From: Thermoprotei archaeon
GTDB taxonomy: Archaea; Thermoproteota; Thermoprotei; Thermoproteales; B15-G16
Assembly: GCA_003649205.1 (NCBI GenBank)
Contig: QMRC01000006.1
Span: forward strand, 13,190 to 77,189
Direction of reading: 5' to 3'
DNA: 64,000 bases
In this document: piece after piece, positions 10,902 to 62,076 of the stretch
How positions within the stretch are numbered: position 1 is the stretch's first letter
Layout of the letters: each line of letters opens with the position of its first letter
The notes under the pieces: model-generated
What the model saw: the letters and a program-made list of their open reading frames with translations, nothing else
Told to the model about the DNA's origin: nothing
Database searches by the model: none
Program-made: the position numbers and the translations under genes

Positions 10902-10904
10902 CTA

Positions 10905-32233: not shown

Positions 32234-33574
32234 GTGCACTTTATGAGATTTGGAGAGAAGCTAGGTGCGCTCTTAATGGTTGAAGCTGCATTTGCTGGAG
32301 CATACGTTAGCATTACTCGTGGTTTCTTCTACTTGATGATGGTTGAACGTGGTTATAGTGTTAGGGATCTAGCTGTAGTTAGCCTAGTGGCTTCACTATC
32401 TATGGTGCTTGTGAGCTACCTACTGTACAGGAGACCTGAGCTACTTGAGAGAAGCGTCAAGGTTAAACTCCTCACCATGCACATACTCGAGAGAATTTTC
32501 TGGTGCATTCTACCATTCATAGTGTTTAGATTTAGCTACATGTTTATCCTCCTAGCTTACTCACTAGCACAGGTCATTACTGTACCTGTGTGCGTGCTGC
32601 TGAATACTGTGTTACTCTCTCAGCTAAGTGAGGACGAGTTCAAGAGCGTTACTGGGTGGAGGAATTCCCTTGGCCTAATCTCGTCATTAAGTGCTCAGCT
32701 ATTGGCGGTCCACGTGTTAGCATCTATGAGGAGTCCAGTACGGTACTACTACCTTTACACAATTGCTCTACTCCTTGGCTTCCTCTCATGGATTCCACTT
32801 ACTATTGCTAGAGTTAGGGACTATGTGAGGAAGGTTAGTGGTTACTCTAGTGAGGAGGTTGAGGTTATTGCTGGTACTACGTTCATATACTTGGTCCTTC
32901 TACTTGGATCAGCTAACATGCTCAGCATCCTCTGGGTACCATATCTGGTGAATGACCTAGGTGCACCGAGCTACCTAGTAGCTATCATGAACGCTGCTGG
33001 TACGATCTCTGGTTCCATATCGTCAGTTCTCTGGATTAGAGTTGTGTACAGGTACTATCTCTGTGGACTAGTTATTGACTCAGCTGTACCAACCTTAGTC
33101 ATGACATTACCACCAATATTCCATCCAGCTCTAGCTGGGCTCTCAGCTTTTGGCTTTACAGCAGGTAACTTCATTGGCTACTTCATGTACTCGAAGATAG
33201 CGGAGAAAAGCGACCCCATAAAGAACTCCACTAGGTTAGCTGCTGCTAATGCACTGGGTCTCCTAATATCATTGATACCAGTTGCTATCTTGAATTTGAG
33301 CGCTAGGGATGGACTAATTCTCTGTAGTTGCTTGAAGGTACTAGCTCTCGTAATTGCTCTGCTGAGTATTAAGGAAGTATCGCCACTTCCTGATCCACGT
33401 ATCAGGACTTATAGTAAGGTAATCTTCGAGACAGGTATGTTCTCATACAGGTTAACGCTCGAATTCACTACTCACTACGTACTATATACCTTGAAGATAG
33501 TAGCTGTTGTCCTTATAATGCTCTTCATGTACTTCATCTACAGGACAGTTACCATACTGATTAGTGGTGCGTAG
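32234..33574 (+). CDS. polytopic membrane protein (MFS-like transporter)
   Basis: 446 aa with about 12 hydrophobic segments in two halves. No strong signature motif. Confidence 0.5.
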   Translation: MHFMRFGEKLGALLMVEAAFAGAYVSITRGFFYLMMVERGYSVRDLAVVSLVASLSMVLVSYLLYRRPELLERSVKVKLLTMHILERIFWCILPFIVFRFSYMFILLAYSLAQVITVPVCVLLNTVLLSQLSEDEFKSVTGWRNSLGLISSLSAQLLAVHVLASMRSPVRYYYLYTIALLLGFLSWIPLTIARVRDYVRKVSGYSSEEVEVIAGTTFIYLVLLLGSANMLSILWVPYLVNDLGAPSYLVAIMNAAGTISGSISSVLWIRVVYRYYLCGLVIDSAVPTLVMTLPPIFHPALAGLSAFGFTAGNFIGYFMYSKIAEKSDPIKNSTRLAAANALGLLISLIPVAILNLSARDGLILCSCLKVLALVIALLSIKEVSPLPDPRIRTYSKVIFETGMFSYRLTLEFTTHYVLYTLKIVAVVLIMLFMYFIYRTVTILISGA

Positions 33575-34235
33575 TATGGAGTTATTGAACATGAGCAATG
33601 GCGAGGTAGCATTTGAGAGAATAATTCAAGCATTTAAGTTGGCACTAAATGAATTGATAGCACTGGTACCTGTAGTACTAGCATCTGTCCTCATAGTTGC
33701 ACTCATGCTAGTAATTGCTAAGTACGTAGGTTCTCTTGTCAAGAGGATACTGAAGGTAGTTGGTCTAGATAGGATACTTGAGAGGTACGTAGGTACACCA
33801 CCGATATCTGTCGAGAACTTCATCGTCGTATTCATACAGCTGGGCTTCGTAATACTTGGCGTAACAATATCCGTGACAGTATTCGCACCTGAGTACCTAG
33901 CTACCTACAACATGTACCTATCCTATATACTGAGGTTGATGTCGGCTGTAGCACTCATAATAATAACGCTCTTCTGGATAGAGGTACTAGTGAATAAGAT
34001 TCGTGGTGAGAGCAAGGTAAAGGCATTTGCCTCACTAATAGCCTTCCTCCTAATACTCACCTTCATAATCGACGTAACAGCACTATCTGAAAGCGTTAAG
34101 TCATCACTCGTATTCGGAATATCCCTTGGACTTGGATTGACAATAGGAGTATTCTCCATATGGTACTTCATGCATGAATACCTTGAGCACTACATCAGCA
34201 GAAAGCATGGAGAGAAAGAGGTCAGACAAGGCTGA
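33564..34235 (+). CDS. membrane protein; its last 5 codons plus stop form attL
   Basis: 223 aa with several TM helices. The 3' end GAG GTC AGA CAA GGC TGA coincides with the 17-bp direct repeat. Confidence 0.5.
   Translation: MVRSMELLNMSNGEVAFERIIQAFKLALNELIALVPVVLASVLIVALMLVIAKYVGSLVKRILKVVGLDRILERYVGTPPISVENFIVVFIQLGFVILGVTISVTVFAPEYLATYNMYLSYILRLMSAVALIIITLFWIEVLVNKIRGESKVKAFASLIAFLLILTFIIDVTALSESVKSSLVFGISLGLGLTIGVFSIWYFMHEYLEHYISRKHGEKEVRQG
34219..34235. repeat. attL: 17-bp direct repeat AGGTCAGACAAGGCTGA
   Basis: An exact copy occurs at 45006-45022. It lies 10 bp upstream of the integrase gene. Confidence 0.75.
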
Positions 34236-34245
34236 TTGAGTTCTC

Positions 34246-35409
34246 ATGGAAGAAATCACACCTGATAGCCCTATCTATCAGGTGAGAATAGGTCTCAATT
34301 CGATGGAGTTGCTGAAGCACTTTGAGAGTTGGTTAATTGCTCAGAACCTGTCCGTGGCTACGGTTAGGTCTCATGTTAGACAGGTTAGGTCTTTCCTCAC
34401 GTGGTTTGGTAGGTCTATCGAGGATTTGAGTAGTTTCGATATTGCGTGTTACCTAGCTGAGTGCCGTAAGCGTGGTCTATCTGAGGCTAGTGTGAATCGC
34501 TATGCTTCTGCTCTCAAGAAATTCCTGAGGTTCCTAGCTAGTTACTTCAGAGCTAGGAGAAGGGTTGAGTTAGCTAATTACTTTGAGCAGGTGTACCGTG
34601 AGGTCAAGGTACCTAAGTACGACCTAGTTGAGGTCAGCATTAAGCGACACATGGAGCCTGATACAGCGAGGAAAGTCATAGACTTAATTCATGACCCCTA
34701 CTGGAAGTGCTTTTTCGCTGTGCTGTATGAGACAGGTCTGAGGTTGAGGGAGCTTAGACAGGTCAAGGTAAGTGATGTTCACGAGAACAAGCACGGGTTC
34801 GAGATAGTTGTCAGAGATAGCAAGACACCTGAGGGAGTTAGGAAAGTGTACGTGGTTGAGTACTATCAGCTACTGAGGTACTACCTAGAGCATGTACGTC
34901 CGAGAGATAGCGAGTGGTTGTTCCCTGCTAGGAGAGACCCAAGGCAACCAATCTCCGAGAAAGCAATCTACAGCTTTCTAAACCGCTTCAGAAAGCGGAC
35001 AGGTATCGTGATTAGTCCACACCGCTTTAGACACGCTAGAGCTACTGAGCTTTACCGCAAGGGAGTATCTGAGCAGTCGTTAATGAGGTTGTTTGGTTGG
35101 AGGACAAGGACAATGATTGATGTCTACAGTAAGCTTTCACAGCGAGATGTGGAGTCTGAGCTACTGAGCAAGGTCTACGGGCTATCCCCTGTAGAGAGTG
35201 AGAGGTCTCAGACTCGTAAGTGCCCGAGGTGTGGTGCTGAGGTAATACCCACAGCTAGGTACTGTCCATACTGTGGTCTAGCCCTAGATATTGCGTCAGT
35301 ATTAGGCAAAGAGGAACAGGTACGGAAATACGCAGAGCTCATTGAAGCACTGCTGAGGTACCTAGAGGAACACCCAGAGTACCTGTCGAAACTATTCTCA
35401 AGGACTTAA
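34246..35409 (+). CDS. int: tyrosine recombinase/integrase with C-terminal zinc ribbon
   Basis: N-terminal SAM-like core-binding domain. Catalytic blocks are ETGLRLRELRQVKVSDV (Arg), HRFRHARATELY (H-x-x-R) and LFGWRTRTMIDVYS (Tyr). The C-terminal tail carries CPRCGAEV..YCPYCG. Confidence 0.9.
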   Translation: MEEITPDSPIYQVRIGLNSMELLKHFESWLIAQNLSVATVRSHVRQVRSFLTWFGRSIEDLSSFDIACYLAECRKRGLSEASVNRYASALKKFLRFLASYFRARRRVELANYFEQVYREVKVPKYDLVEVSIKRHMEPDTARKVIDLIHDPYWKCFFAVLYETGLRLRELRQVKVSDVHENKHGFEIVVRDSKTPEGVRKVYVVEYYQLLRYYLEHVRPRDSEWLFPARRDPRQPISEKAIYSFLNRFRKRTGIVISPHRFRHARATELYRKGVSEQSLMRLFGWRTRTMIDVYSKLSQRDVESELLSKVYGLSPVESERSQTRKCPRCGAEVIPTARYCPYCGLALDIASVLGKEEQVRKYAELIEALLRYLEEHPEYLSKLFSRT

Positions 35410-35562
35410 AAGCGGACATGAAACACAGGCAGAGAACACCAAGACCCGCCCTATAGTCCAGAGGAAATGTTGCCTGAATTCAACAATAGTCTAATATGCG
35501 TATACGTGTGAGTGAACAGCGAGCGAGGTAATACACCACTTGAGGATGAATAGGGGCTCCTC

Positions 35563-35631
35563 GGGGGATGATGAAGGGCTTAGCGGAGCGACCCCGCAAG
35601 GGGGTATGGCTGGACCAGGCTAGCTGACCCC
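35563..35631 (+). ncRNA. GC-rich structured RNA candidate with external C/D-box-like K-turn (element-borne)
   Basis: GGGG-AUGAUGA (C box 35568-35574) ... CUGA (35624-35627)-CCCC terminal stem, with an internal CCCC-GCAA-GGGG tetraloop hairpin (35592-35603). The internal D'/C' boxes are not recognisable. Confidence 0.35.
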
Positions 35632-35753
35632 TACCCCCTCGCCCCGTGATAATGGGTTATTATCACCAATATTTAAGTTTCTATGCAATTACAGTGAAAT
35701 TACCATGGTTACTTTCTCGTGAGGGGGTTTAAGAACCCTTGATACGTCTTTGC

Positions 35754-36101
35754 TTAGCCTTTCTTTCTGATTAGTCCTCCTATTGCTCCTCCTATCATTG
35801 ATAGGAATGCTGAGGCTAGCATCATGAATATTATTGCTAACCCTGCTAACCCACCTGCCCATGCTCCTAGGAATCCAGCTACTGAGAAGCCTAGTACTGT
35901 CAGCACTATTGCTGCTAGTATTCCTCCAATGATTCCACTGAGGAACCCTGCTGCTGCTCCTCTACCTGCTCCTCCTCCAGCTACTAGACCTGCTATGAAG
36001 CCTCCAAGTACTGGTGCGAAGATGTGTAGTATGGGTGAGAGTACGGCTGTAGCTAACATACCTGCAAAGACACCAGCTATGAAACTCAGTACACGACCCA
36101 T
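35754..36101 (-). CDS. Gly/Ala-rich small membrane protein
   Basis: 115 aa with 3-4 TM helices made of G/A/I/L repeats and a basic C-terminus. The opposite-strand ORF is a Pro/Ala shadow. Confidence 0.5.
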   Translation of the reverse strand: MGRVLSFIAGVFAGMLATAVLSPILHIFAPVLGGFIAGLVAGGGAGRGAAAGFLSGIIGGILAAIVLTVLGFSVAGFLGAWAGGLAGLAIIFMMLASAFLSMIGGAIGGLIRKKG

Positions 36102-36371
36102 GTAGGGAAAACCCCGAGGAAACCAGATACAGAGAGGACATAAAGCAGTTCAGAACATAGAGAGCAATGAACCTAGCAACCTCAGAGGACAGAAAACAAG
36201 AACGCTCCTCCGGTCGGTGATGAATACTTGTACTTTTCTCTCGGTGACTTTCCTCAAGGCACTAAATAAGAAATTGCTCTACTCTACAGTGGTATGGATT
36301 CTGAGGATTTTTGGATTGGTTTTCTCCTTGGTTACAGTACTGGTCTTATTCATGCGAAAAACTTAACAACT

Positions 36372-36755
36372 TCAGAACTTGTCTTCAGGCTCATTTCCTG
36401 TTCCTTCATGCTCAGTGAGTTGTTGGGTACTAGACTTAATGAGTTCTTCAGCTCTTTGGAGAAGTTCAGCGACTTCACGACCCTTCTCAGTGAGCTCAAT
36501 GTACCTAAGACCGTGCTTGGTATACGTCCTAACAAGACCGTACTGAAGACAGGTACTGAGGGCTCTGTAAGTACTGACAGGTGAGATACCGTATCTCTGA
36601 AGTTCTCTAATGTGCATAGCTCTACCTGTTTTGTGAAGAATTAGCAGCAATTTAATTCCCGGTCTACCTAAGTCATCAGCTAGAGCTGACATTTTCCTCT
36701 GTCGTTTTCTGGTGATAAACCTAATAACGATATCTTCGAGCATTCGTAACCTCAT
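36372..36755 (-). CDS. winged-helix transcriptional regulator
   Basis: LLLILHKTGRAMHIRELQRYGISPVSTYRALSTCLQYGLVRTY..YIELTEKGREV is a wHTH (ArsR/MarR-like) pattern. It is transcribed divergently from the RHH-led operon. Confidence 0.65.
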   Translation of the reverse strand: MRLRMLEDIVIRFITRKRQRKMSALADDLGRPGIKLLLILHKTGRAMHIRELQRYGISPVSTYRALSTCLQYGLVRTYTKHGLRYIELTEKGREVAELLQRAEELIKSSTQQLTEHEGTGNEPEDKF

Positions 36756-36786
36756 TCTCAGTCTATACCCGATTTAGAGGTATCAC

Positions 36787-36850
36787 GTAATAATATTACA
36801 ACGCTATATCTCGAAACTGATAAATTGTTATAACGTTACAGAGTTGTAAC
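36787..36850. promoter_or_regulatory. divergent promoter/operator region with inverted repeats
   Basis: GTAATAATATTAC (36787-36799), palindrome GTTATAAC (36827-36834) and GTTACA-gagt-TGTAAC (36835-36850). All lie between the wHTH gene and the RHH gene. Confidence 0.4.
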
Positions 36851-36853
36851 AGG

Positions 36854-37051
36854 GTGAGAGAGGTGCCTAAGAGTAAGGTGCCTATGGTCTTGGTTACCTT
36901 CCATATCCCGATACCACTCCTTAGAGAACTTGACAGGTTGGTGGAGGAGGGTAAGTTCCCGAGCAGGAGCGAGGCGATAAGGCACGCAATAATCCAACTC
37001 CTAGCTCGTGAGCGTCAAAGAACACAAATACACGAGGTGTTGGTAGCGTGA
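36854..37051 (+). CDS. ribbon-helix-helix (CopG/Arc-type) DNA-binding protein
   Basis: MVLVTFHIPIPLLRELDRLVEEGKFPSRSEAIRHAI is a textbook RHH pattern. The true start may be the ATG at 36884. Confidence 0.7.
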   Translation: MREVPKSKVPMVLVTFHIPIPLLRELDRLVEEGKFPSRSEAIRHAIIQLLARERQRTQIHEVLVA

Positions 37052-37296
37052 CCATTGTCAACTATGTCGAGGTAATTAGGAACATCATACTCAATGCTTT
37101 GAAGGAGCATGGCTACATTAGTGACCTAGAGCTTGTTAGGGCTGTCAAAGAGGCTACGGGACTCAGCTACGTAGACTTTGCTCCCATTCTTGAGCAGGTA
37201 CTGAGTGAGCTAATGAGGTCTGGCGCAATTAGACGTGTAATGTCAGCAAGCAACCCGAGAAAGGTCGAGCATGGGTGGGAGCTGTGTACACAATAA
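37048..37296 (+). CDS. hypothetical protein (element)
   Basis: 82-aa ORF coupled to the upstream RHH gene by a GTGA overlap. Confidence 0.5.
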   Translation: MTIVNYVEVIRNIILNALKEHGYISDLELVRAVKEATGLSYVDFAPILEQVLSELMRSGAIRRVMSASNPRKVEHGWELCTQ

Positions 37297-37640
37297 AGCC
37301 GAATGGATTCTACCTCAGGTTGGTTTTGGATGCACTGAAGTACTGTGCTAGGACTGAAAGAGGCTCTATTGTGTCTATTTACCCAAAGAAAGTCGCTAAG
37401 TTAAATGGGTACAGTGTTCGTGCATGTGGGAGGTATAGAGATGACAGTGAGGTAGAGAGGTCGCTATCCCCTGCCGAGCTATCTATCATTAGGTACTGGC
37501 TGGATTACCTCTGGGTCAATGGGCTGTGTAGCCGTGAGAAGACTAGTCGTGACAGGTGGAACTACGTATTCCCGAGGGAGAACTTGCCTAAGGCTATCAA
37601 GCTACTTGAGGAGGTGCTCAATGGTGAAGTACAAGATTGA
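37275..37640 (+). CDS. hypothetical protein (element)
   Basis: 121-aa ORF in the co-directional early-gene string. Confidence 0.5.
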   Translation: MGAVYTIKPNGFYLRLVLDALKYCARTERGSIVSIYPKKVAKLNGYSVRACGRYRDDSEVERSLSPAELSIIRYWLDYLWVNGLCSREKTSRDRWNYVFPRENLPKAIKLLEEVLNGEVQD

Positions 37641-37761
37641 GGAGATAGTCAAGGAGTTGAAGGTTGCTCTCAGGGATAGAGAACTCAGAGAAGCATTGCT
37701 GAAGCACTTCTCCAACAACCCAAAGGCTCAAGCAATCATACTACTCCTGTCAGGTGAGTGA
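37621..37761 (+). CDS. small hypothetical protein (element)
   Basis: The ATG at 37621 (MVKYKIEEIVKELKVALRD..) overlaps the previous stop. The longer track ORF from 37519 overlaps the preceding gene extensively. Confidence 0.35.
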   Translation: MVKYKIEEIVKELKVALRDRELREALLKHFSNNPKAQAIILLLSGE

Positions 37762-38000
37762 GCATGATTGAGCTGAGTTTCAAGACGAAGCGGGACTTCG
37801 ATAACTGGGTTAAGGCGCTGTATGACTTCGGTTCGAATCACTGTGTTGAGCCTGTCGTCATCAAGCTAGATGGTAATGACCTCTACGACAGGTACATGGT
37901 CTGCATTGTGTACCATGCTTGGACTGAGGAAGGTGCTTACGCAGTGACCTGTCTAGCCCGCATAGTAGCGATAGTGTACAGGGAAGGTGAGCAGAAGTGA
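37758..38000 (+). CDS. hypothetical protein (element)
   Basis: 80-aa ORF with a 4-bp overlap with each neighbour. Confidence 0.5.
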   Translation: MSMIELSFKTKRDFDNWVKALYDFGSNHCVEPVVIKLDGNDLYDRYMVCIVYHAWTEEGAYAVTCLARIVAIVYREGEQK

Positions 38001-38179
38001 GTCGCTACCACGGGCACAAGGTAACTATCACGATTATTGCGACAACAGGTTCTGGACTACCGACAGGTGAGCGAAAGAGCGATTTCATTAGATTCATGGT
38101 CGAGCAGGTACTGGAACGTGAGCTTTCTAAGAGGCTCCGTGATTTCCGTGTCCTCAAAGTCATGGTGAAGGTGATGTAG
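37997..38179 (+). CDS. hypothetical protein (element)
   Basis: 60-aa ORF with a GTG start overlapping the previous stop. Confidence 0.4.
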   Translation: MSRYHGHKVTITIIATTGSGLPTGERKSDFIRFMVEQVLERELSKRLRDFRVLKVMVKVM

Positions 38180-38258
38180 ATGGTTCCTGCTACTACTACC
38201 TATTCTATTTCTAGTAATTCGTTTAGACAAAATACGCGGGACATTAAACGCGGTTCAG

Positions 38259-38383
38259 ATTGGAACCAATGTTCCCTCTCAGAGGAATCATTGAAACCAA
38301 TCATTGGAATCAATGTCAGTGGTATGATTGGAACCAATGATTGGAACCAATCATTCCACTCGCTTAGTCTCATTGGTTCCAAA
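38259..38383. repeat. iteron-like array of ATTGGAACCAAT half-palindromic 12-mers
   Basis: Copies lie at 38259-38270, 38290-38301 (ATTGAAACCAAT), 38303-38314 (ATTGGAATCAAT), 38327-38338, 38340-38351 and, inverted, 38372-38383 (ATTGGTTCCAAa). The region has no convincing ORF. Confidence 0.7.
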
Positions 38384-38394
38384 AACGGAGAGAG

Positions 38395-38718
38395 GTGTTG
38401 AGTATCCCCCGAATAACTATCTACATCCATGAGAGCGATTGGGAAAAGCTGACGAAAATAGCTGAGCAGAGAGGACAATCAATGTACAGCATAGTGAAGC
38501 AAGTAGTACTTGAGTTCCTGAAGCTAAGTAACCCAATTGTTGCTCATGGTAAGCTTTCTAGGGATTTAGCTACCTGTCGGAGCATTATCAAGCGATTTGG
38601 TTGGTGTGCTCTCTGCATACATGCTGAGGTTGTTGGTGATAGGTTAGTCTGCAGAAAGACAGGCAAAGTCATAGAAAAACCCATATGGCAATGCCCACAC
38701 CCCATACCCAAGGTGTAA
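38395..38718 (+). CDS. RHH-like N-terminal domain protein with Cys-rich C-terminal region
   Basis: ITIYIHESDWEKLTKIAEQRGQSMYSIVKQVVLEFL has a beta-strand/helix/helix pattern. The C-terminal region is CALCIHAE..CRKTG..CPH. It lies directly downstream of the iteron array. Confidence 0.5.
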   Translation: MLSIPRITIYIHESDWEKLTKIAEQRGQSMYSIVKQVVLEFLKLSNPIVAHGKLSRDLATCRSIIKRFGWCALCIHAEVVGDRLVCRKTGKVIEKPIWQCPHPIPKV

Positions 38719-38727
38719 ATCATGCTT

Positions 38728-38751
38728 TTTACACAGCTGCAGCTGTGTAAA
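38728..38751. promoter_or_regulatory. perfect 24-bp palindrome TTTACACAGCTGCAGCTGTGTAAA
   Basis: Read directly from the sequence. It is flanked by an AAATCAT / ATGATTT inverted pair and GTAAAT repeats, in the 76-bp gap upstream of ORF 38795. Confidence 0.5.
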
Positions 38752-38794
38752 TGATTTTTACTCACTGACAGGTGCGTAAATTTGGTGAGAATTC

Positions 38795-39163
38795 ATGTCC
38801 GAGATGGAGAAGTTAATTAGGAACCTGAACATACTGCGAAACTACTTCAGCAAGGTACCACCTGAAGTCATTGAGGCTCTCATGTACTTTGAGGATAGGT
38901 TCTTCACTGAGAAATACCATGTTGTTCGCTCTAAGACAGGTAGGGAGTATCGCTACAGGTACCTCTACATCAGGTTGAATGACTACAGGACACTAGGTTA
39001 CTTCAGGATAAATGATAGCAATGATGAATTGCTGCTACACGAAATTAGGCAGGTCAAGGCATTTTCACAAGCACTACTACAGTACATAGCAATGCTCAGA
39101 CACAGCAAACTAGCAAACCTCACCAAAATTTACTCAAGGACCTTGAGTAAAAACAACCAATAA
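38795..39163 (+). CDS. hypothetical protein (element)
   Basis: 122-aa ORF with no recognisable motif. Confidence 0.5.
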   Translation: MSEMEKLIRNLNILRNYFSKVPPEVIEALMYFEDRFFTEKYHVVRSKTGREYRYRYLYIRLNDYRTLGYFRINDSNDELLLHEIRQVKAFSQALLQYIAMLRHSKLANLTKIYSRTLSKNNQ

Positions 39164-39224
39164 CACATCAGCAATTGGGGAAATTGAATTGGGGTGATGC
39201 CCCCTGAACCTCAAGGTCTATTTC

Positions 39225-40211
39225 GTGAAGAAAACTAGGCAATACGAGGTCTATGAGGGCTCTAGGAGAATCCTCAGGACTAAGGTACATGCAAAAGCTC
39301 ACGAGTACCTATCGAAACAAATCAATTCAAGTTTTGAGTTCTACTTTGTTTGTTGCAATAGGGAGCACCTGTTAGCATGTTCACGTTTCTTTGAACTCAC
39401 AGGTCGCAGGCTCAATGTGTTGATTAGTTACAACTTCATACGTGACAGGTACCTCACACAGGTGCTTCAGCAAGTTAGACCACACCTAAGCAAAGTCATG
39501 ATTGATTCAGGTGCTTTCCATGTACTTATCCGCAAGGTACCCCTGGAAAAGTTCCAGAGCTACATAGGTGAGTACGTGAATTGGCTCAACAACCACACAG
39601 AGCTTTACGACTACTGTGTCGCACCTGACGTACCCTGTGATGAACGACCCGCAGAAAAAATCCAGAAACTACCAAACAGGTACAAGATAGAGCTAACCAT
39701 AGCTAACACAGTTCACTGGATAGATAGGTTGACAGACCCTCGCAAGGCTGTGGCTGTAGTTCAGGGTTATTTCGTGAATGAGTACCTGCTCTGTGCTGAG
39801 AAGCTGAAAGAACTCGGGCTCACAACAGCAAAGACAGGTGTCGGCTCTTTATGTGTCAGGAAATACAGTAGACAACAAGCACGTGAAGTACCACAGATAC
39901 TAGCTAGCATAAGACAGGTCTTACCGTCATGGGTGAAACTTCACGCATTCGGTCTTCAGCTAGATTTCTTACCGACCTGTCTCAAGTACCTACACAGCTC
40001 AGACAGTGCCTCATGGCAATTAAGTTACTCAAAGTTCAATAGGATACGAATAGCGAACCTGTCGACAGGTCAAACAGTTGAGCTTGATTTAGTTAGTCAT
40101 GGCGGAGCGAGGAAAAAGAACCTAGACCAAGTCACGATATACACATACAACCTCTTAGCCTACTGGAATAGAGTTCAGCAACTAACGAGACAGGCAGCAC
40201 AGACAAAATAA
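39225..40211 (+). CDS. TGT-fold transglycosylase, DpdA-like (candidate DNA or tRNA 7-deazaguanine transglycosylase)
   Basis: The order of blocks matches tRNA-guanine transglycosylases. These are MIDSGAFHV (Asp94, cf. DSGGFQ), AVVQGY (cf. VQGG), GVGSLC, KLHAFGL (cf. xLxGxG) and HSSDSASW (Asp260, cf. FDS/FDC). There is no PUA domain and no Cys-Cys-Cys-His zinc site, as in the short phage/island DpdA proteins. Confidence 0.6.
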   Translation: MKKTRQYEVYEGSRRILRTKVHAKAHEYLSKQINSSFEFYFVCCNREHLLACSRFFELTGRRLNVLISYNFIRDRYLTQVLQQVRPHLSKVMIDSGAFHVLIRKVPLEKFQSYIGEYVNWLNNHTELYDYCVAPDVPCDERPAEKIQKLPNRYKIELTIANTVHWIDRLTDPRKAVAVVQGYFVNEYLLCAEKLKELGLTTAKTGVGSLCVRKYSRQQAREVPQILASIRQVLPSWVKLHAFGLQLDFLPTCLKYLHSSDSASWQLSYSKFNRIRIANLSTGQTVELDLVSHGGARKKNLDQVTIYTYNLLAYWNRVQQLTRQAAQTK

Positions 40212-40230
40212 AGTAAGTGTTGAAAACTGC

Positions 40231-40995
40231 TCAAGTCCCCATGTTCTCTATCTCATGTCCTGTAGGGTATAGGTTCAGTTTCTTTATGTACTTGTACACT
40301 GTTTGACGTGAAACACCGAGTGCTCTAGCTATATCACTTATACTGTAACCTTTCTTCAACATATCCTCAATAGTCTTCTCCCTATTAGCAGTCTGGATAG
40401 CTACCTGTAAGTCCATGAACACCTTCTCAACAAAGAGCCTCCTCATTTCCTGATACTTCACATAGATGTCGTGGTCTAGCTTAGGCACGAAGGTATCTAC
40501 ACCAATTTCCTTCACCACGAACTTACCCGTAGGAGTCCACGTAAACCTGTAGATGTGTGCCTCTCTCTCACCTTGCTTACTCTTCCTAATGTGTACATGT
40601 ATCCAACACATCTCACGTAGTGCTCTTAAGAGCAGGCGATAGGTAGGTACCGTGAATATGACAGCACCTGTCACAGTCCTAGCAACCTCAAGGAACTTTA
40701 CAAATAGCTGACGGTCTTCTTTAAGAAAGTCATATTTGCTTATCCACACACCAGCATCATCATAGCACAGACACTTAACACGCTTACGATACCTAAGACA
40801 CTCCCTAATAATTGGGAAAGACTGCTTAACATCGAAGAATACGTAGTTGAGAGCAGTCTCCCTACAATACAGCTCACTCAAGACCTTGATAGCGTAGGTA
40901 GTCTTACCAACCCCTTGCTGACCCTGAATAACAATAACCTCAAATCCATTGTTCCTGAAAGCACGCTCAATTATCTTAGTTAGGACAAACGGCAT
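40231..40995 (-). CDS. P-loop NTPase with C-terminal helix-turn-helix
   Basis: Walker A QGQQGVGKTTYA, Walker B-like CLCYDDAG, and a C-terminal GYSISDIARALGVSRQTVYKYIKKL (resolvase/HTH_7-like). Confidence 0.7.
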   Translation of the reverse strand: MPFVLTKIIERAFRNNGFEVIVIQGQQGVGKTTYAIKVLSELYCRETALNYVFFDVKQSFPIIRECLRYRKRVKCLCYDDAGVWISKYDFLKEDRQLFVKFLEVARTVTGAVIFTVPTYRLLLRALREMCWIHVHIRKSKQGEREAHIYRFTWTPTGKFVVKEIGVDTFVPKLDHDIYVKYQEMRRLFVEKVFMDLQVAIQTANREKTIEDMLKKGYSISDIARALGVSRQTVYKYIKKLNLYPTGHEIENMGT

Positions 40996-40998
40996 ACC

Positions 40999-41301
40999 TC
41001 ACTCCTCCTCAATCTCCTCCTCACGACCAACAGGTATGAACCTCTTACGACCCATTACATGCGTTATAGTCCTGAAGAACTTAGCAAACGATAGCAGAGC
41101 TGAGTAACCACGACCGCCCTCAGCTAACCTCAACTCAAGGTAAGGTATGATGAATGAGTCTCTCAAGTCCTGAAGGTTGTACCTGTCGCATATGAAGAGC
41201 AACGTAGCTATCTTACGAGCCTCACCATACTGCAACCTAGTTAAGCGAAGTATGTTCCCCGAGGTAAGAGCCTCAATTAGTTCCTCTGACATGAGCCTCA
41301 C
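40999..41301 (-). CDS. hypothetical protein (element)
   Basis: 100-aa ORF with an acidic tail, coupled to the neighbouring genes. Confidence 0.5.
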   Translation of the reverse strand: MRLMSEELIEALTSGNILRLTRLQYGEARKIATLLFICDRYNLQDLRDSFIIPYLELRLAEGGRGYSALLSFAKFFRTITHVMGRKRFIPVGREEEIEEE

Positions 41302-41302
41302 C

Positions 41303-41758
41303 TCACAGGTGAATGATACCGAACTTCACGAGCATGAACATGATGTACGCACCTATGATTAACCCACAAATCAGAGCAATGATGACAGGAGTAGCCCTAA
41401 CAGGTACCTTCTCCGTTAGCAGAGCCCTCAGTACCTGTCCCTTGATAATCTGCGATATAGTGTCACTATCAATGTAGGGGTCTTGATATTGACCACAGAA
41501 GTACACTATCTTTCTGACAGGTGCCCACACCTTCACGTCTCTAAACACCCTAACCCTACCCCCAGCAAGCACCAGCTTCCTCTCCGGATTGAGCAATTTA
41601 GCAGGCGTAATCTCGACATGCTTATCGTTCACGATAATAGCTATGTGCTTTGACCTGAAGATACGTCCTTCAGGTCTCGCTAGGAACATCATGATGAATG
41701 TGACAGGTATAGCTACGCAGTATATTGCGACTAGGATAGGGCTCAACATAGGGCTCAC
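41303..41758 (-). CDS. membrane protein (element)
   Basis: 151 aa with N- and C-terminal TM helices. Confidence 0.5.
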   Translation of the reverse strand: MSPMLSPILVAIYCVAIPVTFIMMFLARPEGRIFRSKHIAIIVNDKHVEITPAKLLNPERKLVLAGGRVRVFRDVKVWAPVRKIVYFCGQYQDPYIDSDTISQIIKGQVLRALLTEKVPVRATPVIIALICGLIIGAYIMFMLVKFGIIHL

Positions 41759-42280
41759 CTACAGAGTCTTCTCAGCTTCAGCAATGAGCTTGTTCAGGAC
41801 CTGCTCAACCCTCTCAATTCGCTTAGCTAACTCACTGAGCCTATCCTCACTATGATTTGAGCCTAGCTTACTCACGTCGATAGCGTCTAGGAATATCGAG
41901 AGCGGAACAGCAATAGCGTACTCAAACCTCTCAACCTTACCACTCTGCTCGACAGGTATCGTAACTTGCTGAGCCTCCCTCTCCCTCACCAAAATCAGAA
42001 CACGGTCAGGATTCCTAACCGCAGAGACAGGTAGCTTAGACAGGTACGGTCTCCTACCTGTCTCACTTTCGGACGTGTACGGTCTACCTCTCTGAAAGTG
42101 AAGTACTAAGCACAGAGCACCGAGACTAGCTAGAGCAATGAAACCAACCCACTTCAGCGTAAAGACCGCTCCAGAGGATATCTTAGCAGTCAGTGGTGAC
42201 AGGTATGGGTCATACCAAATCAAGTACATGACTGCACCTGTGAGCAGTGCTGTGCTCAGGTAAAGGAAACGAGTACTCAC
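41759..42280 (-). CDS. membrane protein (element)
   Basis: 173 aa with three N-terminal TM helices and a C-terminal coiled segment. Confidence 0.5.
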   Translation of the reverse strand: MSTRFLYLSTALLTGAVMYLIWYDPYLSPLTAKISSGAVFTLKWVGFIALASLGALCLVLHFQRGRPYTSESETGRRPYLSKLPVSAVRNPDRVLILVREREAQQVTIPVEQSGKVERFEYAIAVPLSIFLDAIDVSKLGSNHSEDRLSELAKRIERVEQVLNKLIAEAEKTL

Positions 42281-42405
42281 TTACAACCCACCTCACTTAT
42301 GTAAACTTTTTCACAAAAACCATAAGGTCAACTTGCGAGATATCCTGAATAATCACTGAACACGGAGCAAACCTGAGACAGGTCGAAAAGTAGGAGGTGA
42401 AGTAG

Positions 42406-42765
42406 GTGGACATAGACCTAGGGAACATCCTGAGAGCTGTCCTGTTTGTAGCCCTAATACCCACGCTATTCGGAGCTATAGCTGGATTCGTTGACCCTTC
42501 ACTACAACCAATGATACAGCCCCTACTCAGCCTAGTACCAATGCTCATAATCCTCAACCTAATCAAAGACCTGTTCTCAGAAGCTGGAGCAAAGGGATTC
42601 GTCAAGATATTCGATATCCTACTGCTCGTAATGATGTTACCTGTCCTAATCAACATGTTCGGAGCAGCCACAGGACAAAACGAAGCACTAGCACAAGTCT
42701 CAGGACTCCTACAGCAACTCCTACCAATCCTACTATTCATCAAGCTCATCGAAGAGATGGTTTAG
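42406..42765 (+). CDS. small membrane protein (element)
   Basis: 119 aa with 3-4 TM helices. It is immediately upstream of the large glycoprotein gene. I prefer it to the antisense track ORF 42297..42749. Confidence 0.5.
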   Translation: MDIDLGNILRAVLFVALIPTLFGAIAGFVDPSLQPMIQPLLSLVPMLIILNLIKDLFSEAGAKGFVKIFDILLLVMMLPVLINMFGAATGQNEALAQVSGLLQQLLPILLFIKLIEEMV

Positions 42766-42786
42766 TTCCTTCGAGGTGATTAAGCT

Positions 42787-44541
42787 ATGAAACCCAAGCC
42801 CCTTTTTGCAATCTTAACAGTACTCACTCTAGTGCTCATAGTGGCGGTTGTTAATGCTGGTGAGTACACGCTATACGATGTACTTCAGTACGCTCATGAG
42901 GTACATGTCTTCGGAAAGACATACAACACAGCAAGTTATGGCACCACAACTTACTCTGGGACATGGAATCTAACTGATGTTGTGTCGGGGAGGAAAGTTA
43001 CATTTGGCTACAGGCAATACCTACAAGACCCAGATAGCTCCGACACAATCGTTATTGTGTTTCAGAAGAATACAGCTATCGAGGTCGGTACTGGTAGCGG
43101 GAAGTGTGTCTACGGTAAACCTGTCGTAATTACGTATGATACTGAAACAGGAAGGAGGACTATGTACTACATTGATGGCGGTGAACTGAAGAAAGTAGGT
43201 GAATTCACTGGTGGTACCTACGTCTACTGGAACGGTACAAAGTTATGTCAAGCACTACGTTTCAAGGACTGGTTAGATTTCCACAAGTTCTTTAACAACA
43301 CATGCATGTTAATACTCCCAGACATCACGACATACGACTACAGGATAATTGATGGGTCTTCCGAGCTATTAAAGGATAAGTGTGGTGGAAATGGTTTCCA
43401 CACCCTCATTATCTTCGGTGGTGAGTACCTAAACAAATCGATAATTGTTGAAGTTGCTGGAGCCTACGGAATCAAGAACATAACGCTCACTACAGAACTC
43501 AACACAGTCTACACGATTGACCCAAAGCACTTGAAGTTAGCTGTGTTCACAGGTAACCTAACGGAGACGCTATCGAGGGCGAGCCAGAGCACAGAGGAAA
43601 GTACACAGGAAAGTACAACTAACACGACAAACGAGACCTCAACACCAACCACAGCACCAGAGACGAAGGTGTACAAGGTCACGATACATGTCTACGATGT
43701 GGATACCAATGAGGAAATCACATCAGCAATGGTTAAGGCGGGTTGGTTCACGAAGACAGGTTCACCTGTTACCTTTGAGTTCAAGTGGAAGGAACCACAG
43801 TGGTTACCTATCTCAGCTAGTGCTACAGGTTACAAGTCCTTCAGCACAACTATCTGGGTCGATACCAACATGACGCTGTGGGTAGGGCTAGTCAAGGAAA
43901 CCTCGAACAGCACCGAGCAATACAGTAAATTACTGAGGCTCGGTGTCTCAATTGCGGGTGTTGGTTCAACTCCATATTGGGCTCAGGAAAACAAGACATT
44001 CACAGAGTGGGCTAATGAGGTTGAGCAGTTACTATCCTCATCACAGGCTCCTGAGGTTAAGTATGAGACTACGTGGTATGGTTTGAAGATAGTCGCTGTG
44101 AAGGTACCTTCAGGTAGACCAGCATACGGAGTAGCGACTATTGTCGCTGTTAAGAAAGGATTTCTCGGTACCCTAACATGGGAAGAAGAACTCGGTACTG
44201 TGCAAATAGTGAATGGTACGGGTTATTTCCATGTTGACTACGAGACAATCAAGAACAAGCTACAACTCAAAGAGTGGGGAGGGGAGTACTTCTACGGTTT
44301 CAAGATTGTATGGAAGGTCGGTGACCTAGACCCAGAGGTCGAGGTTGTACCTGTCAAGAATACATGGACGCCTGTCTACATTCAGGTGAATGAGCAGACA
44401 GGAACCTACTCAGCAACAACACTACCACAGACAGCATTAACGAATGTCGGAACATCACTAACACAGATGCTCATAACCCTACTACCACTGTTCATCATAT
44501 TCGCACTCATTGGAGCTATTACAGGTCGTAGAAGGCGATAG
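42787..44541 (+). CDS. large secreted, C-terminally anchored glycoprotein-like protein (candidate virion/envelope or surface protein)
   Basis: Signal peptide MKPKPLFAILTVLTLVLIVAVVNA. Many N-x-S/T sequons. Thr/Ser-rich linker ESTQESTTNTTNETSTPTTAPETK. C-terminal TM helix plus RRRR stop-transfer. Confidence 0.6.
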   Translation: MKPKPLFAILTVLTLVLIVAVVNAGEYTLYDVLQYAHEVHVFGKTYNTASYGTTTYSGTWNLTDVVSGRKVTFGYRQYLQDPDSSDTIVIVFQKNTAIEVGTGSGKCVYGKPVVITYDTETGRRTMYYIDGGELKKVGEFTGGTYVYWNGTKLCQALRFKDWLDFHKFFNNTCMLILPDITTYDYRIIDGSSELLKDKCGGNGFHTLIIFGGEYLNKSIIVEVAGAYGIKNITLTTELNTVYTIDPKHLKLAVFTGNLTETLSRASQSTEESTQESTTNTTNETSTPTTAPETKVYKVTIHVYDVDTNEEITSAMVKAGWFTKTGSPVTFEFKWKEPQWLPISASATGYKSFSTTIWVDTNMTLWVGLVKETSNSTEQYSKLLRLGVSIAGVGSTPYWAQENKTFTEWANEVEQLLSSSQAPEVKYETTWYGLKIVAVKVPSGRPAYGVATIVAVKKGFLGTLTWEEELGTVQIVNGTGYFHVDYETIKNKLQLKEWGGEYFYGFKIVWKVGDLDPEVEVVPVKNTWTPVYIQVNEQTGTYSATTLPQTALTNVGTSLTQMLITLLPLFIIFALIGAITGRRRR

Positions 44542-44544
44542 AGC

Positions 44545-44847
44545 ATGACTAACCGCTACGTCTACCTTGGAAAGAAAGTGAAGGACATAGGCAAGAAAGG
44601 ACTAGACCGACCAAGCGAGTACCTAGCAATAGCGAGAGCTATAGCACAAGACTACAAGGCTGGTAGGATAAGTAAAAAGACTGCTCACGGACGCTTTTTA
44701 CTACTTTACAGGCTCGTGGATAAGAATAGCAAGCTGAAGGTACCTAAGTCAGTTAAGGAACGTCTCAAACGCAAGATTAAGGAAATCTGGATGAAGACCA
44801 TTGGAGGTGGGAAGGTGGCTCGAAAGAGGAAAAGAAAGAAAAGGTAG
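44545..44847 (+). CDS. small basic protein (possible nucleic-acid-binding)
   Basis: 100 aa, Lys/Arg-rich, with the C-terminal tail ARKRKRKKR. Confidence 0.5.
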   Translation: MTNRYVYLGKKVKDIGKKGLDRPSEYLAIARAIAQDYKAGRISKKTAHGRFLLLYRLVDKNSKLKVPKSVKERLKRKIKEIWMKTIGGGKVARKRKRKKR

Positions 44848-45003
44848 GCTCAAGTCACATCACCTGTATGTCGCTCTAACTACCTAATTTCTTGAGCTTG
44901 CTCTAGTCCTCAAGAATTCTTTACACATGTCTCATGTCCTGCGACCTGTCACCTAGACCTGAACTAGCTCAAGACAGAAGGTGGGTGACTTCTCTCAACT
45001 TAT

Positions 45004-45060
45004 TTAGGTCAGACAAGGCTGAATTCTTCACGGATCTGCCTCGCCTGGGCTCATCATAAA
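45004..45060 (-). ncRNA. C/D box sRNA (dual guide) whose 3' end is the att core
   Basis: The minus strand reads AUGAUGA(C, 45051-45057)-GCCCAGGCGAGG(12)-CAGA(D', 45035-45038)-UCC-GUGAAGA(C', 45025-45031)-AUUCAGCCUUGU(12)-CUGA(D, 45009-45012)-CCU. Confidence 0.75.
45006..45022. repeat. attR: 17-bp direct repeat AGGTCAGACAAGGCTGA
   Basis: Exact copy of 34219-34235. It lies inside the 3' part of the minus-strand C/D box sRNA. Confidence 0.75.
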
Positions 45061-45101
45061 GCAGCCAATTACCTACTCTCGAGACCCTCTAATAAAGATC
45101 A

Positions 45102-45860
45102 CTAATCAGCAATCACATACCTAACCTCACCAGTGAAGCACCACTCACTCTCATCACTACGTTTGAGATCCACATCTACACACTTCTGCTGAAGATACAG
45201 TATTAGTTCTCGACTCGGGATTGCCTCACTAGGTAGTGAATCAAGAACACGTCTATACTGTACAGCTATGATTCCATCGAAGTACTTACTTAGCTCCTCA
45301 ACTGACTCAACAACCTTACTCTCTGGAATTAACTCAATACCGAAGAGGATGTAAGCAATGAAGCTAACCTCATCACCATAAACTTCACGACATTTCTCCC
45401 TAAGAGCATTCAACCTCACAATCTCACTCTGAGGAATACCCTTACACAACACAGCATTTCTCAGGTACTCATCCCAAACCTCAATACCAACCCTAATAAC
45501 GAGCCTACTAGGTTTAAGCAGCTCAAGCACCTGTCTCACAGAGTCAAAACTTAGGTACTCAGGTCTAGACTCAATATCCACAATTCTACCACAGGTAAAT
45601 CTAGAGAGCTTGAGCACGGTATCCAGAGGTAGCTCAAAGAATGAACCACCATTAAATACAGTAATTCTCTCAATACTAAACCTCAGGGTAGCATCTTCCA
45701 GAAGCGACAATATCTTGTCATTTGTCTGAATTACATCGGATAGTGAGTTACCTGCCTCAAGGAAGAAGGGACAGAAGACACATCTACCCCAACGACATCT
45801 AAATCCCTTGAGTATCACGATAGCTCTCTTCCTAGATCTCTCAATCACAACACCTAGCAC
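45102..45860 (-). CDS. RaSEA-like radical SAM protein (archaeosine formation partner of ArcS)
   Basis: Cys triad CRWGRCVFC (C-x4-C-x2-C, Elp3-like spacing) near the N-terminus, about 250 aa. It overlaps and is co-directional with the ArcS-like gene, the arrangement known for ArcS/RaSEA. Confidence 0.55.
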   Translation of the reverse strand: MLGVVIERSRKRAIVILKGFRCRWGRCVFCPFFLEAGNSLSDVIQTNDKILSLLEDATLRFSIERITVFNGGSFFELPLDTVLKLSRFTCGRIVDIESRPEYLSFDSVRQVLELLKPSRLVIRVGIEVWDEYLRNAVLCKGIPQSEIVRLNALREKCREVYGDEVSFIAYILFGIELIPESKVVESVEELSKYFDGIIAVQYRRVLDSLPSEAIPSRELILYLQQKCVDVDLKRSDESEWCFTGEVRYVIAD

Positions 45861-46557
45861 TGAGAATCTCCCTCAAACCACTAATTAACTTACTCAAACT
45901 AGTTGGAGTTATGAGTATGAGATCTGGATCATCGTAGTAACCACCTAGAGATACCTCATCAAGCTCATGAGGAGGTACCTCATTAACTCTCGCAGCTAAG
46001 TTCTTAACCTCAATACCTAGCATGGAACAAGCACGCTCTAGAGCAGCATAGCTATCTGAATCCCACCTTAGATACGACACAAAGCACTCATAATAACTCC
46101 TAAATCTACTCAGGAACAATCTCAATCTCTCACAGGTAACCTCCCTATAGAGTACCTTCACTTCACTAGTTTCATACTTAGGATTCCAGTCATACGCACA
46201 ATAGGGGTAGTACTCTTCAAGCTCTCTCGGTACGATACCGGCATTCGTTATAATGACTTGATGAATATCCTCGTAGTACCTACCTAACGACTTCAAAGCC
46301 CTAATTATGAAGTAGTGTATGTAGGATTGAGAGTACGGCTTACCGTAAGCACATGGTAGGAAGAGACAGACTCTATACCTCTTCCTTGGCTTCCACTCAG
46401 TTAGTAATCTCTTAAAACCCTCTTCAAAGAATGGGTGCTTAAGGTACCTAAGACCTACACCTCTGAGGAATTCCCTACCATCACCAGACCAGATAAGTTC
46501 GTGACCATCCCAAATAACGTACAAGCTAGATCCCTCAAGAAGTTCTCCACAAACCAA
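45841..46557 (-). CDS. ArcS-like protein (stand-alone DUF5591/ArcS catalytic-type domain)
   Basis: LPCAYGKPYSQSYIHY is an exact match to the ArcS signature PC-x3-KPY-x2-S-x2-H. At 238 aa it has no PUA domain. Confidence 0.75.
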   Translation of the reverse strand: MVCGELLEGSSLYVIWDGHELIWSGDGREFLRGVGLRYLKHPFFEEGFKRLLTEWKPRKRYRVCLFLPCAYGKPYSQSYIHYFIIRALKSLGRYYEDIHQVIITNAGIVPRELEEYYPYCAYDWNPKYETSEVKVLYREVTCERLRLFLSRFRSYYECFVSYLRWDSDSYAALERACSMLGIEVKNLAARVNEVPPHELDEVSLGGYYDDPDLILITPTSLSKLISGLREILSARCCD

Positions 46558-58533: not shown

Positions 58534-58587
58534 TCAGTGTGGTGTAGCTCAATCATCTGGTCATTGCCCGGACTACTCATCATCGTG
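58531..58587 (-). ncRNA. candidate C/D box sRNA convergent on the methyltransferase gene 3' end
   Basis: The minus strand reads AUGAUGA(C, 58577-58583)-GUAGUCCGGGCA(12)-AUGA(D')-CCA-GAUGAUU(C'-like)-13 nt-CUGA(D, 58534-58537). The internal boxes are degenerate. Confidence 0.5.
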
Positions 58588-62025: not shown

Positions 62026-62076
62026 CAGATGAAGAGAGGGTCACGGACTGAGAGGTGACGAACTAGGCTCCGCTGA
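62026..62076 (+). ncRNA. weak C/D box sRNA candidate convergent on ORF 62063..62638
   Basis: CAGAUGA(C-like)-15 nt-CUGA(62048-62051)-GAG-GUGACGA(C'-like)-11 nt-CUGA(62073-62076). The boxes and spacers are imperfect. Confidence 0.3.

Follow-up and report, generated by a model that had tools for sequence, protein, structure and literature searches.

The DNA considered here, a 64-kb stretch of a Thermoprotei archaeon (contig QMRC01000006.1 of assembly GCA_003649205.1; hereafter the window, by which the whole stretch is meant), contains a mobile element that lies between a host membrane-protein gene and a gene for a C/D box small RNA (sRNA), a guide RNA for methylation. Next to the membrane-protein gene the element carries a tyrosine integrase gene (int), and a host radical-SAM gene is found on the far side of the sRNA gene. 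Our subject is the sequence of 17 base pairs (bp) that bounds the element on both sides and that is at once the sRNA gene's 3' end and the end of the membrane-protein open reading frame (ORF). The coordinates of these features, together with those of sRNAs beside related integrases, are collected in Table 1.

Table 1. Features of the window and of loci with related integrases (nt, nucleotides; aa, amino acids)
Locus	Feature	Position	Strand	Remarks
Window	C/D box sRNA gene	45006..45057	-	Dual-guide, 7-12-4-3-7-12-4 layout, read from sequence
Window	sRNA C box AUGAUGA	45051-45057	-	Sequence
Window	sRNA D' guide GCCCAGGCGAGG	45039-45050	-	Sequence
Window	sRNA D' box CAGA	45035-45038	-	Sequence
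Window	sRNA loop UCC	45032-45034	-	Sequence
Window	sRNA C' box GUGAAGA	45025-45031	-	Sequence
Window	sRNA D guide AUUCAGCCUUGU	45013-45024	-	Sequence
Window	sRNA D box CUGA	45009-45012	-	Sequence
Window	sRNA 3-nt tail CCU	45006-45008	-	Sequence
Window	attR core, 17 bp	45006..45022		On minus strand, last 10 nt of D guide, D box and 3-nt tail
Window	attL core, 17 bp	34219..34235		End of membrane-protein ORF including TGA; opposite strand, sRNA 3' fragment only
Window	Host membrane-protein gene	33564..34235	+	Last 17 nt are att core; convergent with sRNA before integration; L001 ortholog 10839-11483(-)
Window	Integrated mobile element, about 10.8 kb	34236..45005		Absent from empty-site genome L001
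Window	Tyrosine integrase, 387 aa	34246..35409	+	Intact, C-terminal zinc ribbon; ATG 10 bp after attL core
Window	TATA-like TTTATTA	45090..45096	-	About 36 nt upstream of C box, in CTTTATTAGAGGG block kept in L001
Window	Host radical-SAM gene (RaSEA/TIGR01210-like)	45102..45860	-	Directly upstream of sRNA, same strand; homologs named 'radical SAM enzyme (TIGR01210 family)'
Window	TATA-like TTATTTA	44999..45005	+	Right end of element
Window	DpdA/queuine-tRNA-ribosyltransferase-like protein	39225-40211	+	Pfam DpdA 2.8e-6; phrog_1279 4e-11
L068	C/D sRNA	9496-9544	Same as int	int start 9589; full-geometry scan
L190	C/D sRNA	4748-4796	Same as int	int start 4847; full-geometry scan
L191/L192	C/D sRNA	L191 91-140; L192 28-77	Same as int	L191 int 209; full-geometry scan
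L193	C/D sRNA	92-145	Same as int	Called int start codon actually C' box
L194 (also L195, L196)	C/D sRNA	about 82-130	Same as int	Geometry scan

The C/D box sRNA gene

Read base by base on the minus strand, the gene has the sequence AUGAUGA-GCCCAGGCGAGG-CAGA-UCC-GUGAAGA-AUUCAGCCUUGU-CUGA-CCU and thereby the canonical 7-12-4-3-7-12-4 geometry attributed to it in the preliminary description, which had placed the sRNA correctly at 45004-45060, although this interval overshoots by 3 nt on the 5' side and by 2 nt on the 3' side. A C box of the form RUGAUGA stands near the 5' end and a D box CUGA near the 3' end (GUGAUGA and CUGA in the closest relative, L001, described below), the guides are 12 nt long and the loop 3 nt, and the internal D' and C' boxes, although degenerate, keep their GA and UGA...GA elements. 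A strict geometry scan of the 64-kb window, which demanded four boxes and guides of 10-13 nt, returned four candidates including this sRNA, compared with 0.03 per Markov shuffle. By contrast, Rfam at gathering thresholds gave zero matches in the whole window; below gathering, 11 Pyrococcus C/D sRNA families match the interval, and in nine the match spans it from end to end (beginning at 45002-45008 and ending at 45059-45066), the best being sR5 with 20.7 bits against a threshold of 40 (E=0.014). Such low scores are to be expected because the C/D families of Rfam are guide-specific, and they have no bearing on class membership. The TATA-like TTTATTA upstream of the C box is a possible promoter of the sRNA itself.

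Attachment cores and the empty site

The 17-bp sequence AGGTCAGACAAGGCTGA forms an exact direct repeat of just two copies in the window, and 0 of 100 shuffles contained a comparable repeat even when two mismatches were allowed. The sequence of the right copy (attR) is, as had been claimed, the reverse complement of the last 10 D-guide nucleotides, the D box and the 3-nt tail. The left copy (attL) comprises 2 nt of a Glu codon, Val-Arg-Gln-Gly and TGA of the membrane-protein ORF; the earlier wording, five last codons plus TGA, was therefore right in location and off in count, the real content being 4 2/3 codons plus the stop, which is a trivial difference.

An empty site was located in an uncultured Thermoproteales archaeon (L001, GCA_964647155.1) through its protein P0002, which is 88% identical to the product of the radical-SAM gene. 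Here, the RaSEA-like gene, the sRNA and the convergent membrane gene follow one another, and the element is absent. The sRNA reads GUGAUGA-GCCCAGGCGAGG-CAGA-UCU-AUGAAGA-GUUCAGCCUUGU-CUGA-CCU and is directly followed by the convergent membrane-gene ortholog, whose stop codon (TCA on the sRNA strand, 10839-10841) lies inside the D guide, such that the overlap through the 3-nt tail amounts to 17 nt. In BLAST alignments, the left flank of the element matches L001 with 88-93% identity up to window position 34235 (L001 10839) and the right flank with 89% identity from window position 45006 (L001 10855), whereas window 34236-45005 has no BLAST match in L001. The two flank alignments overlap by exactly the 17-bp core, and this overlap with an element-free genome is the signature of a site-specific insertion with duplicated core: direct repeats stand at both ends, and the relative has a single copy at the empty site.

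Because the alignments overlap by exactly the core, the sRNA gene and the ORF converged and overlapped by about 17 bp before integration, which the preliminary description had deduced and the empty site proves. The same comparison confirmed its further statements that both genes are intact after integration, the ...VRQG* C-terminus being the same in the window and in L001, and that the complete sRNA with its upstream region lies at attR and a 3' fragment only at attL. Furthermore, the L001 core lies within a conserved sRNA, contrary to the earlier caveat that an empty site might place it outside one. Across the attB region (L001 10834-10855; window 45006-45027) extends an imperfect inverted repeat, GAGTTCAG-CCTTGT-CTGACCTC, whose arms agree at 7 of 8 positions around a 6-bp spacer. 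ARAGORN detected no transfer RNA (tRNA) or transfer-messenger RNA (tmRNA) gene in the whole window, so that attB does not lie in a gene of either kind. At more distant RaSEA loci (L002-L007, 52-55% identity) the downstream neighbour is a different one and the sRNA sequence is absent, and the synteny of sRNA and RaSEA gene is thus limited to close relatives.

Conservation and ribosomal target of the sRNA

Between the window and L001 the two guides are conserved at 12/12 and 11/12 positions, and the differences are A/G at the start of the C box (which remains RUGAUGA), a single base each in the loop and in the C' box, and the D guide's first base, while the 9 nt just before the C box are scrambled and the boxes and guides are kept. 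The conservation extends much further. In a collection of 185,579 species genomes, presumably for the most part bacterial, the pattern TGANGANNTCAGCCTTGYCTGA has 54 matches (about 38 archaeal and 16 bacterial) against about 9 expected by chance. Its archaeal carriers include Thermococci, Thermoplasmata, Archaeoglobi, Bathyarchaeia, Caldarchaeum, Ignisphaera, Desulfurococcaceae, Vulcanisaeta, Nitrososphaeria and others, and beside most of the archaeal matches a second guide and partner boxes can be recognised. The guide, whose predicted target is helix 27 of 16S ribosomal RNA (rRNA; see below), comes after the C box and before the D' box in Thermococci and Thermoplasmata, where the C' box, another guide and the D box then complete the gene. 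In several Thermoproteota (L021, L030, L053, L058 and L037), it occupies the D position, and the D' guide CCCAGGYGGC resembles GCCCAGGCGAGG.

The D guide forms 11 contiguous pairs, 10 Watson-Crick (WC) pairs and one G-U pair, with GCAAGGCUGAAA in helix 27, as scored on the Rfam-confirmed 16S genes of other archaea. The N+5 nucleotide is the G after the GCAA tetraloop of this helix (G855 in the 16S of L081), which by our own count we take to be G902 in E. coli numbering, and the guide is predicted to direct 2'-O-methylation there. Helix 27 is a published conserved methylation hotspot (PMC7994747). More than 120 metagenomic contigs contain GCCUGGGNANUACGNNCGCAAGGCUGAAACUUAAAGGAAUUGGCGG, and in the two that were checked with Rfam the motif is inside complete archaeal small-subunit rRNA genes. 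In the Thermoproteota orthologs, the D' guides pair over 11 positions with CGCCGCCUGGGG, which lies 21 nt upstream of the D target in the same 16S, and two targets at this distance are a typical dual-guide arrangement. The prediction of guide targets, which had been proposed earlier, gave a target for the D guide and an uncertain one for the D' guide of the window, which at the site of the orthologs forms no more than 8 contiguous WC pairs (CCCAGGCG) with the foreign 16S genes scored. By the comparative and target evidence we consider the sRNA genuine, and it would be expressed and functional in guiding methylation of its target.

Separately, a metagenome-assembled genome of Vulcanisaeta (L019, 2-50) carries the helix-27 guide and a GCCCAGGCG... 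guide in swapped order relative to window 45009-45057, and so illustrates how guides are shuffled from D to D' and back across Thermoproteota.

The integrase and its relatives

The integrase matches the Pfam domains Phage_integrase (PF00589, 3.4e-24), SAM-like N-domain (1.8e-13) and Zn_Ribbon_1 (1e-7). In an alignment of the protein with 13 homologs (A2), no variation occurs at the catalytic residues R166, H259, R262 and Y294, and hardly any at K193 and W285. As the gene is intact and its ATG follows 10 bp after the core, the enzyme is not of the partitioning SSV type. Databases hold one identical entry ('Thermoprotei archaeon'), after which the next best relative has 36% identity; nearly all relatives possess the zinc ribbon. 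The best viral matches come from Geoglobus and Archaeoglobus pleomorphic viruses, with 26% identity over 95% of the length.

Zinc-ribbon integrases 25-36% identical to that of the window were examined at ten further distinct loci. Five of these, independent of one another, have a canonical C/D sRNA that ends, on the same strand, 45-70 bp upstream of the int start; the interval contains a TATA-like box for the integrase. All strong full-geometry matches in the scanned loci were at this position upstream of int, the half-mer background being 0.019 per 230-bp window. For instance, the sRNA of L068 reads GUGAUGA-AACCUGGCCUUU-CAGA-AUA-GUGAAGA-GAACUUACCCGA-CUGA. The int-adjacent sRNAs are different sRNAs, each with a good rRNA target: 11 WC pairs are formed by the D' guide of L190 with 23S UAGACCGUCGUG, by the D guide of L068 with 23S CCGGGUAAGUUC (L191 has the same 23S site), and by the D guide of L194 with a 23S site. 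L068 and L191 share the 3' half of their sRNAs only (C' box, D guide and D box), with 20/23 nt identical.

The search of related integrases that had been suggested earlier revealed adjacent C/D sRNAs at half of the loci but no sRNA att pair for any relative: neither a second att copy nor an empty site turned up for L062, L064, L068, L190 and L191/192, and L063, L190, L191, L192 and L193 showed no terminal overlap indicative of a circular contig. A tRNA scan of L062-L066, which did not cover L067, L068 and L190-L196, found none, and a tRNA gene as the target was rejected for the window and L062-L066 on account of the empty scans. L066, the sole distant integrase relative in IMG/VR, has no adjacent sRNA. 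In L062, int and cargo are bracketed by a 13-bp exact repeat, AGCAATAATCCTC (9624-9636 and 18150-18162), which is borderline with about 0.06 expected by chance. The L068 integrase (9589-10744) was called as two ORFs of 140 aa and 247 aa, probably owing to a frameshift, and the L068 element may be decaying.

Further observations were made at these loci. About 100 nt upstream of int in L062, a degenerate sequence at 9925-9950, GTGATGG-ATATCAGCCCTTGT-AAGG, resembles the C' box and D guide of the window, while a weak sRNA-like sequence at 9630-9680(-) of the same contig was rejected for its non-canonical spacing. At the presumed far end of the L068 element (about 20370), AGAACCTGACTATGG is loosely like the sRNA 3' end with an 8-nt deletion. 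L191, L192, L194, L195 and L196 are independent assemblies of two related elements, and their left ends fall 27-90 nt upstream of the int-adjacent sRNA, which suggests branch points of the assembly graph near the sRNA, with mixed integrated, empty and episomal forms.

Discussion

We propose that an element of about 10.8 kb with a non-partitioning tyrosine integrase integrated at the last 17 bp of a host dual-guide C/D box sRNA gene, a reading to which we assign a probability of roughly 85%. The attP of the element would hold a 17-bp copy identical to the sRNA 3' end, which the integrase would recombine with the chromosomal attB core, thereby duplicating the core; because the attP and attB cores would be identical, both overlapping host genes would be regenerated. 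The ORF would retain its C-terminus and stop codon at attL and the complete sRNA its own upstream region at attR, with a 17-nt fragment adjoining int. The logic would be that of integration at the 3' end of a tRNA gene, where the element's own copy of the core regenerates the target. Such a target would be short and conserved, since invariant rRNA dictates the sequence of the guide and proteins bind to the D box motif. The inverted repeat of attB arises from the UCAG of the guide, which mirrors CUGA in 16S rRNA, and from the D box CUGA that comes after it. This repeat has the usual layout of two recombinase half-sites around a 6-bp crossover and is a plausible binding-site pair, and strand exchange would take place in CCTTGT within the 17-bp core. 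Recombination itself and present-day mobility are what we infer from this arrangement. Maturation of archaeal C/D sRNAs is described, in a review of the original work, as independent of flanking sequence (Tripp 2017, reviewed in PMC7994747), and since flanking sequence is dispensable, the sRNA at attR should stay functional.

Several points weigh against this proposal. The core is also coding sequence, and from this locus alone the sRNA cannot be told from the ORF end as the choice of the integrase. Both internal boxes, CAGA (D') and GUGAAGA (C'), are degenerate, pairing of the D' guide is poor as described above, and a metagenome scan for a 16S variant fully complementary to it (CTCGCCTGGG...) found none. 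Among random 12-mers, 13/300 matched the rRNA complementarity level of the D guide; target pairing alone is thus weak evidence, and the case for the sRNA rests on its conservation. Apart from the identical integrase entry, databases contain no close relatives of the element, and no other copy, attP or episomal form of it was seen in the searched collections.

Should this integrase lineage target C/D sRNA genes as a matter of habit, our proposal would be extended without conflict, and we give even odds to the family normally using such genes as att sites, the window being one instance. The five independent relatives with a canonical sRNA just upstream of int speak for such a habit, as do the differences among these sRNAs, which nonetheless have good 23S targets, and the sharing of a 3' half only between L068 and L191. 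However, the other five loci show no sRNA, and no relative yielded a second att copy or an empty site, the contigs being short or the element decayed-looking. The orientation differs as well, for the relatives have a complete same-strand sRNA beside int where the window has an antisense fragment, and their sRNAs could belong to the elements rather than to the hosts. A more far-reaching formulation, namely an archaeal zinc-ribbon integrase lineage specialised on C/D sRNA genes as a second class of 'tRNA-like' landing pads in thermophilic archaea, is tentative, its chances falling just short of even.

Alternatively, the element could in truth have targeted the membrane-protein gene at its 3' end, in which case the sRNA overlap would be incidental. 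The core does hold the last codons and the stop of this ORF, attB sites in coding regions are documented in archaea (PMC8371274), and antisense overlaps of sRNAs and ORFs are frequent in Thermoproteota (PMC6009581). Yet the conserved part of the core is the guide with its D box, which about 38 archaeal genomes carry in unrelated contexts, and not the poorly conserved C-terminus of the membrane protein. Furthermore, related integrases recurrently adjoin other C/D sRNAs, which makes the sRNA the common denominator, and we regard the ORF end as an unlikely target. Even less credible, and in our judgement very improbable, is that the C/D-like sequence is a chance look-alike or dead pseudogene at an ordinary ORF-end or intergenic att site, since the missing Rfam family at gathering threshold, the degenerate internal boxes and the poor D' pairing are set against geometry matches about 100-fold over shuffle expectation, boxes and guides that were kept in L001 despite divergent flanks (the A to G change in the C box leaving RUGAUGA), a guide-plus-box unit conserved across phyla and enriched in archaea (about 38/54 matches), and a target in a conserved 16S hotspot.

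Our preferred reading, integration at the sRNA 3' end, works like integration into tRNA genes but is outside that class because the target is a methylation-guide RNA gene. As cited in a review of archaeal recombinases, tyrosine integrases of phages, plasmids and islands recombine into tRNA and tmRNA genes at the 3' end (Reiter et al. 1989; Williams 2002, cited in PMC8371274). As in these systems, the attP core would be identical to the 3' end of a small, conserved, structured RNA gene that is regenerated at one junction and leaves a 3' fragment at the other, int adjoins the att site, and the core includes an inverted repeat. Unlike there, a short core of 17 bp also forms the end of a convergent protein gene, such that two genes are regenerated together, and the target is a C/D box sRNA. 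Non-tRNA small RNA genes are known from bacteria as prophage att sites, for instance sRNA loci such as ryeA/ryeB in Salmonella. Similarly, phage phiEf11 has its att site in ffs, the gene of 4.5S RNA (PMC12540744); our case differs from these in the archaeal host, in the class of RNA and in that the C/D sRNA is conserved by rRNA complementarity and not by its own fold. The integrase resembles the pNOB8-type non-partitioning enzymes of archaea (reviewed in PMC8371274) in that int is intact after integration and the att site is outside the gene. It departs from them by its C-terminal zinc ribbon and its 26% identity to the nearest viral integrases. In SSV-type integrases, on the other hand, attP inside int splits the gene, whereas ORF 34246-35409 is complete.

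The convergent overlap of sRNA and ORF, which had been presented as notable in itself, occurs commonly and has been described before. That archaeal C/D sRNA genes overlap protein genes antisense at the 3' end was reportedly noted by Tripp et al. in 2017. Such overlaps with ORF 3' ends are frequent (Lui et al. 2018, PMC6009581), and 40/47 ORF-overlapping guides of Pyrobaculum keep their rRNA targets (PMC6009581). Our case is like these in that the D guide overlaps a convergent ORF 3' end with its rRNA target kept, and unlike them in that a mobile element is integrated; Lui et al. (PMC6009581), whose study treats the genomic surroundings of C/D sRNAs in most detail, never use 'integra', 'virus' or 'viral' in their text. 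In the review of archaeal tyrosine recombinases, attB sites are placed in tRNA genes, coding regions or intergenic regions, and the terms 'sRNA', 'snoRNA' and 'non-coding RNA' do not occur (PMC8371274). In line with the initial impression of novelty, the 8 million papers searched, which did not extend to subscription-only ones, brought up no account of an att site in a C/D sRNA gene.

The finding widens the general rule by which integrases prefer RNA genes that are small and conserved and have regenerable 3' ends. Thermophilic archaea possess 50-130 C/D sRNA genes per genome (PMC7994747), and because these are numerous and mostly unannotated, att sites scored as 'intergenic' or 'end of ORF' may often be sRNA genes. 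To recognise them would sharpen the prediction of provirus and island boundaries in archaeal genomes and metagenome-assembled genomes. Furthermore, sRNA att sites would suggest why some sRNA 3' halves are common to otherwise different sRNAs, and would connect mobile elements with the documented mobility and rapid turnover of guide-RNA genes. Short, conserved, rRNA-mirroring attB sites would also be on offer as genetic tools for hyperthermophiles. If a lineage specialised on C/D sRNAs indeed existed, the rRNA-mirroring 3' halves would be conserved targets of a multi-copy class that reaches across phyla, and the elements may carry or replace sRNA 3' halves, thereby influencing guide evolution and sRNA gene mobility. 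The interest of the finding would rise considerably if the association were confirmed at the level of the family.

The element and further features of the window

The element has a G+C content of 44-47% against about 43% in the flanks, and is probably a provirus or virus-derived element of the fusello-/pleolipovirus-like world, though it may be a plasmid. It encodes a DnaA-like ATPase with a C-terminal helix-turn-helix (HTH) domain (phrog_5484, 5e-41), which in tblastn searches has 30-35% identity to SSV and some pleomorphic-virus proteins. Its other genes code for winged-HTH and HTH/Arc-like regulators, a DpdA/TGT-like protein and small hydrophobic membrane proteins. By its sequence, a 584-aa protein shows hydrophobic stretches at the N-terminus and at the C-terminus, the latter with RRRR after it, and is putatively secreted and membrane-anchored. 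With Fuselloviridae and thermophilic pleolipovirus-like proviruses (SSV1 B251; GacPV1, BK065156) the element shares the DnaA-like ATPase, the genome size of 10-17 kb, the position of int at the genome end, and the order of a small membrane protein and then a large secreted, anchored one. Unlike Fuselloviridae and GacPV1, the integrase is not of the SSV type and the putative structural proteins have no detectable similarity to GacPV1 VP3/VP4. No capsid gene was identified in the element, and its putative spike and membrane proteins have no PHROG or Pfam match and no IMG/VR relative. An attempt to classify the element through these proteins failed, as they bear no likeness to PHROG, Pfam, IMG/VR or GacPV1 entries.

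In the integrated state, the integrase begins 10 bp after the host membrane gene and has no recognisable TATA box. The TATA-like TTATTTA at the right end of the element would, if the ends were joined, stand about 30 nt upstream of the integrase ATG, and this only in a circular attP form. Integration may turn off the integrase promoter, uncoupling int, or put int under host read-through.

Elsewhere in the window, the geometry scan returned three other canonical C/D sRNA candidates, at 21202-21250(-), 58534-58583(-) and 62029-62076(+), one of which reads GTGATGA-ACGCAGTCAACG-CTGA-TAG-GTGATGT-GTGCTAGGTCCT-CTGA; none has an Rfam match at gathering score, and their targets were scored roughly, on foreign rRNAs. 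The DpdA-like protein of the element suggests a putative 7-deazaguanine modification of DNA. Beside the insertion, the host genes at 45102-46557(-) are archaeosine-pathway-like, comprising the RaSEA-like radical SAM gene and one for a DUF5591/ArcS-like protein, and the vicinity of the DpdA-like gene to them may be a coincidence.

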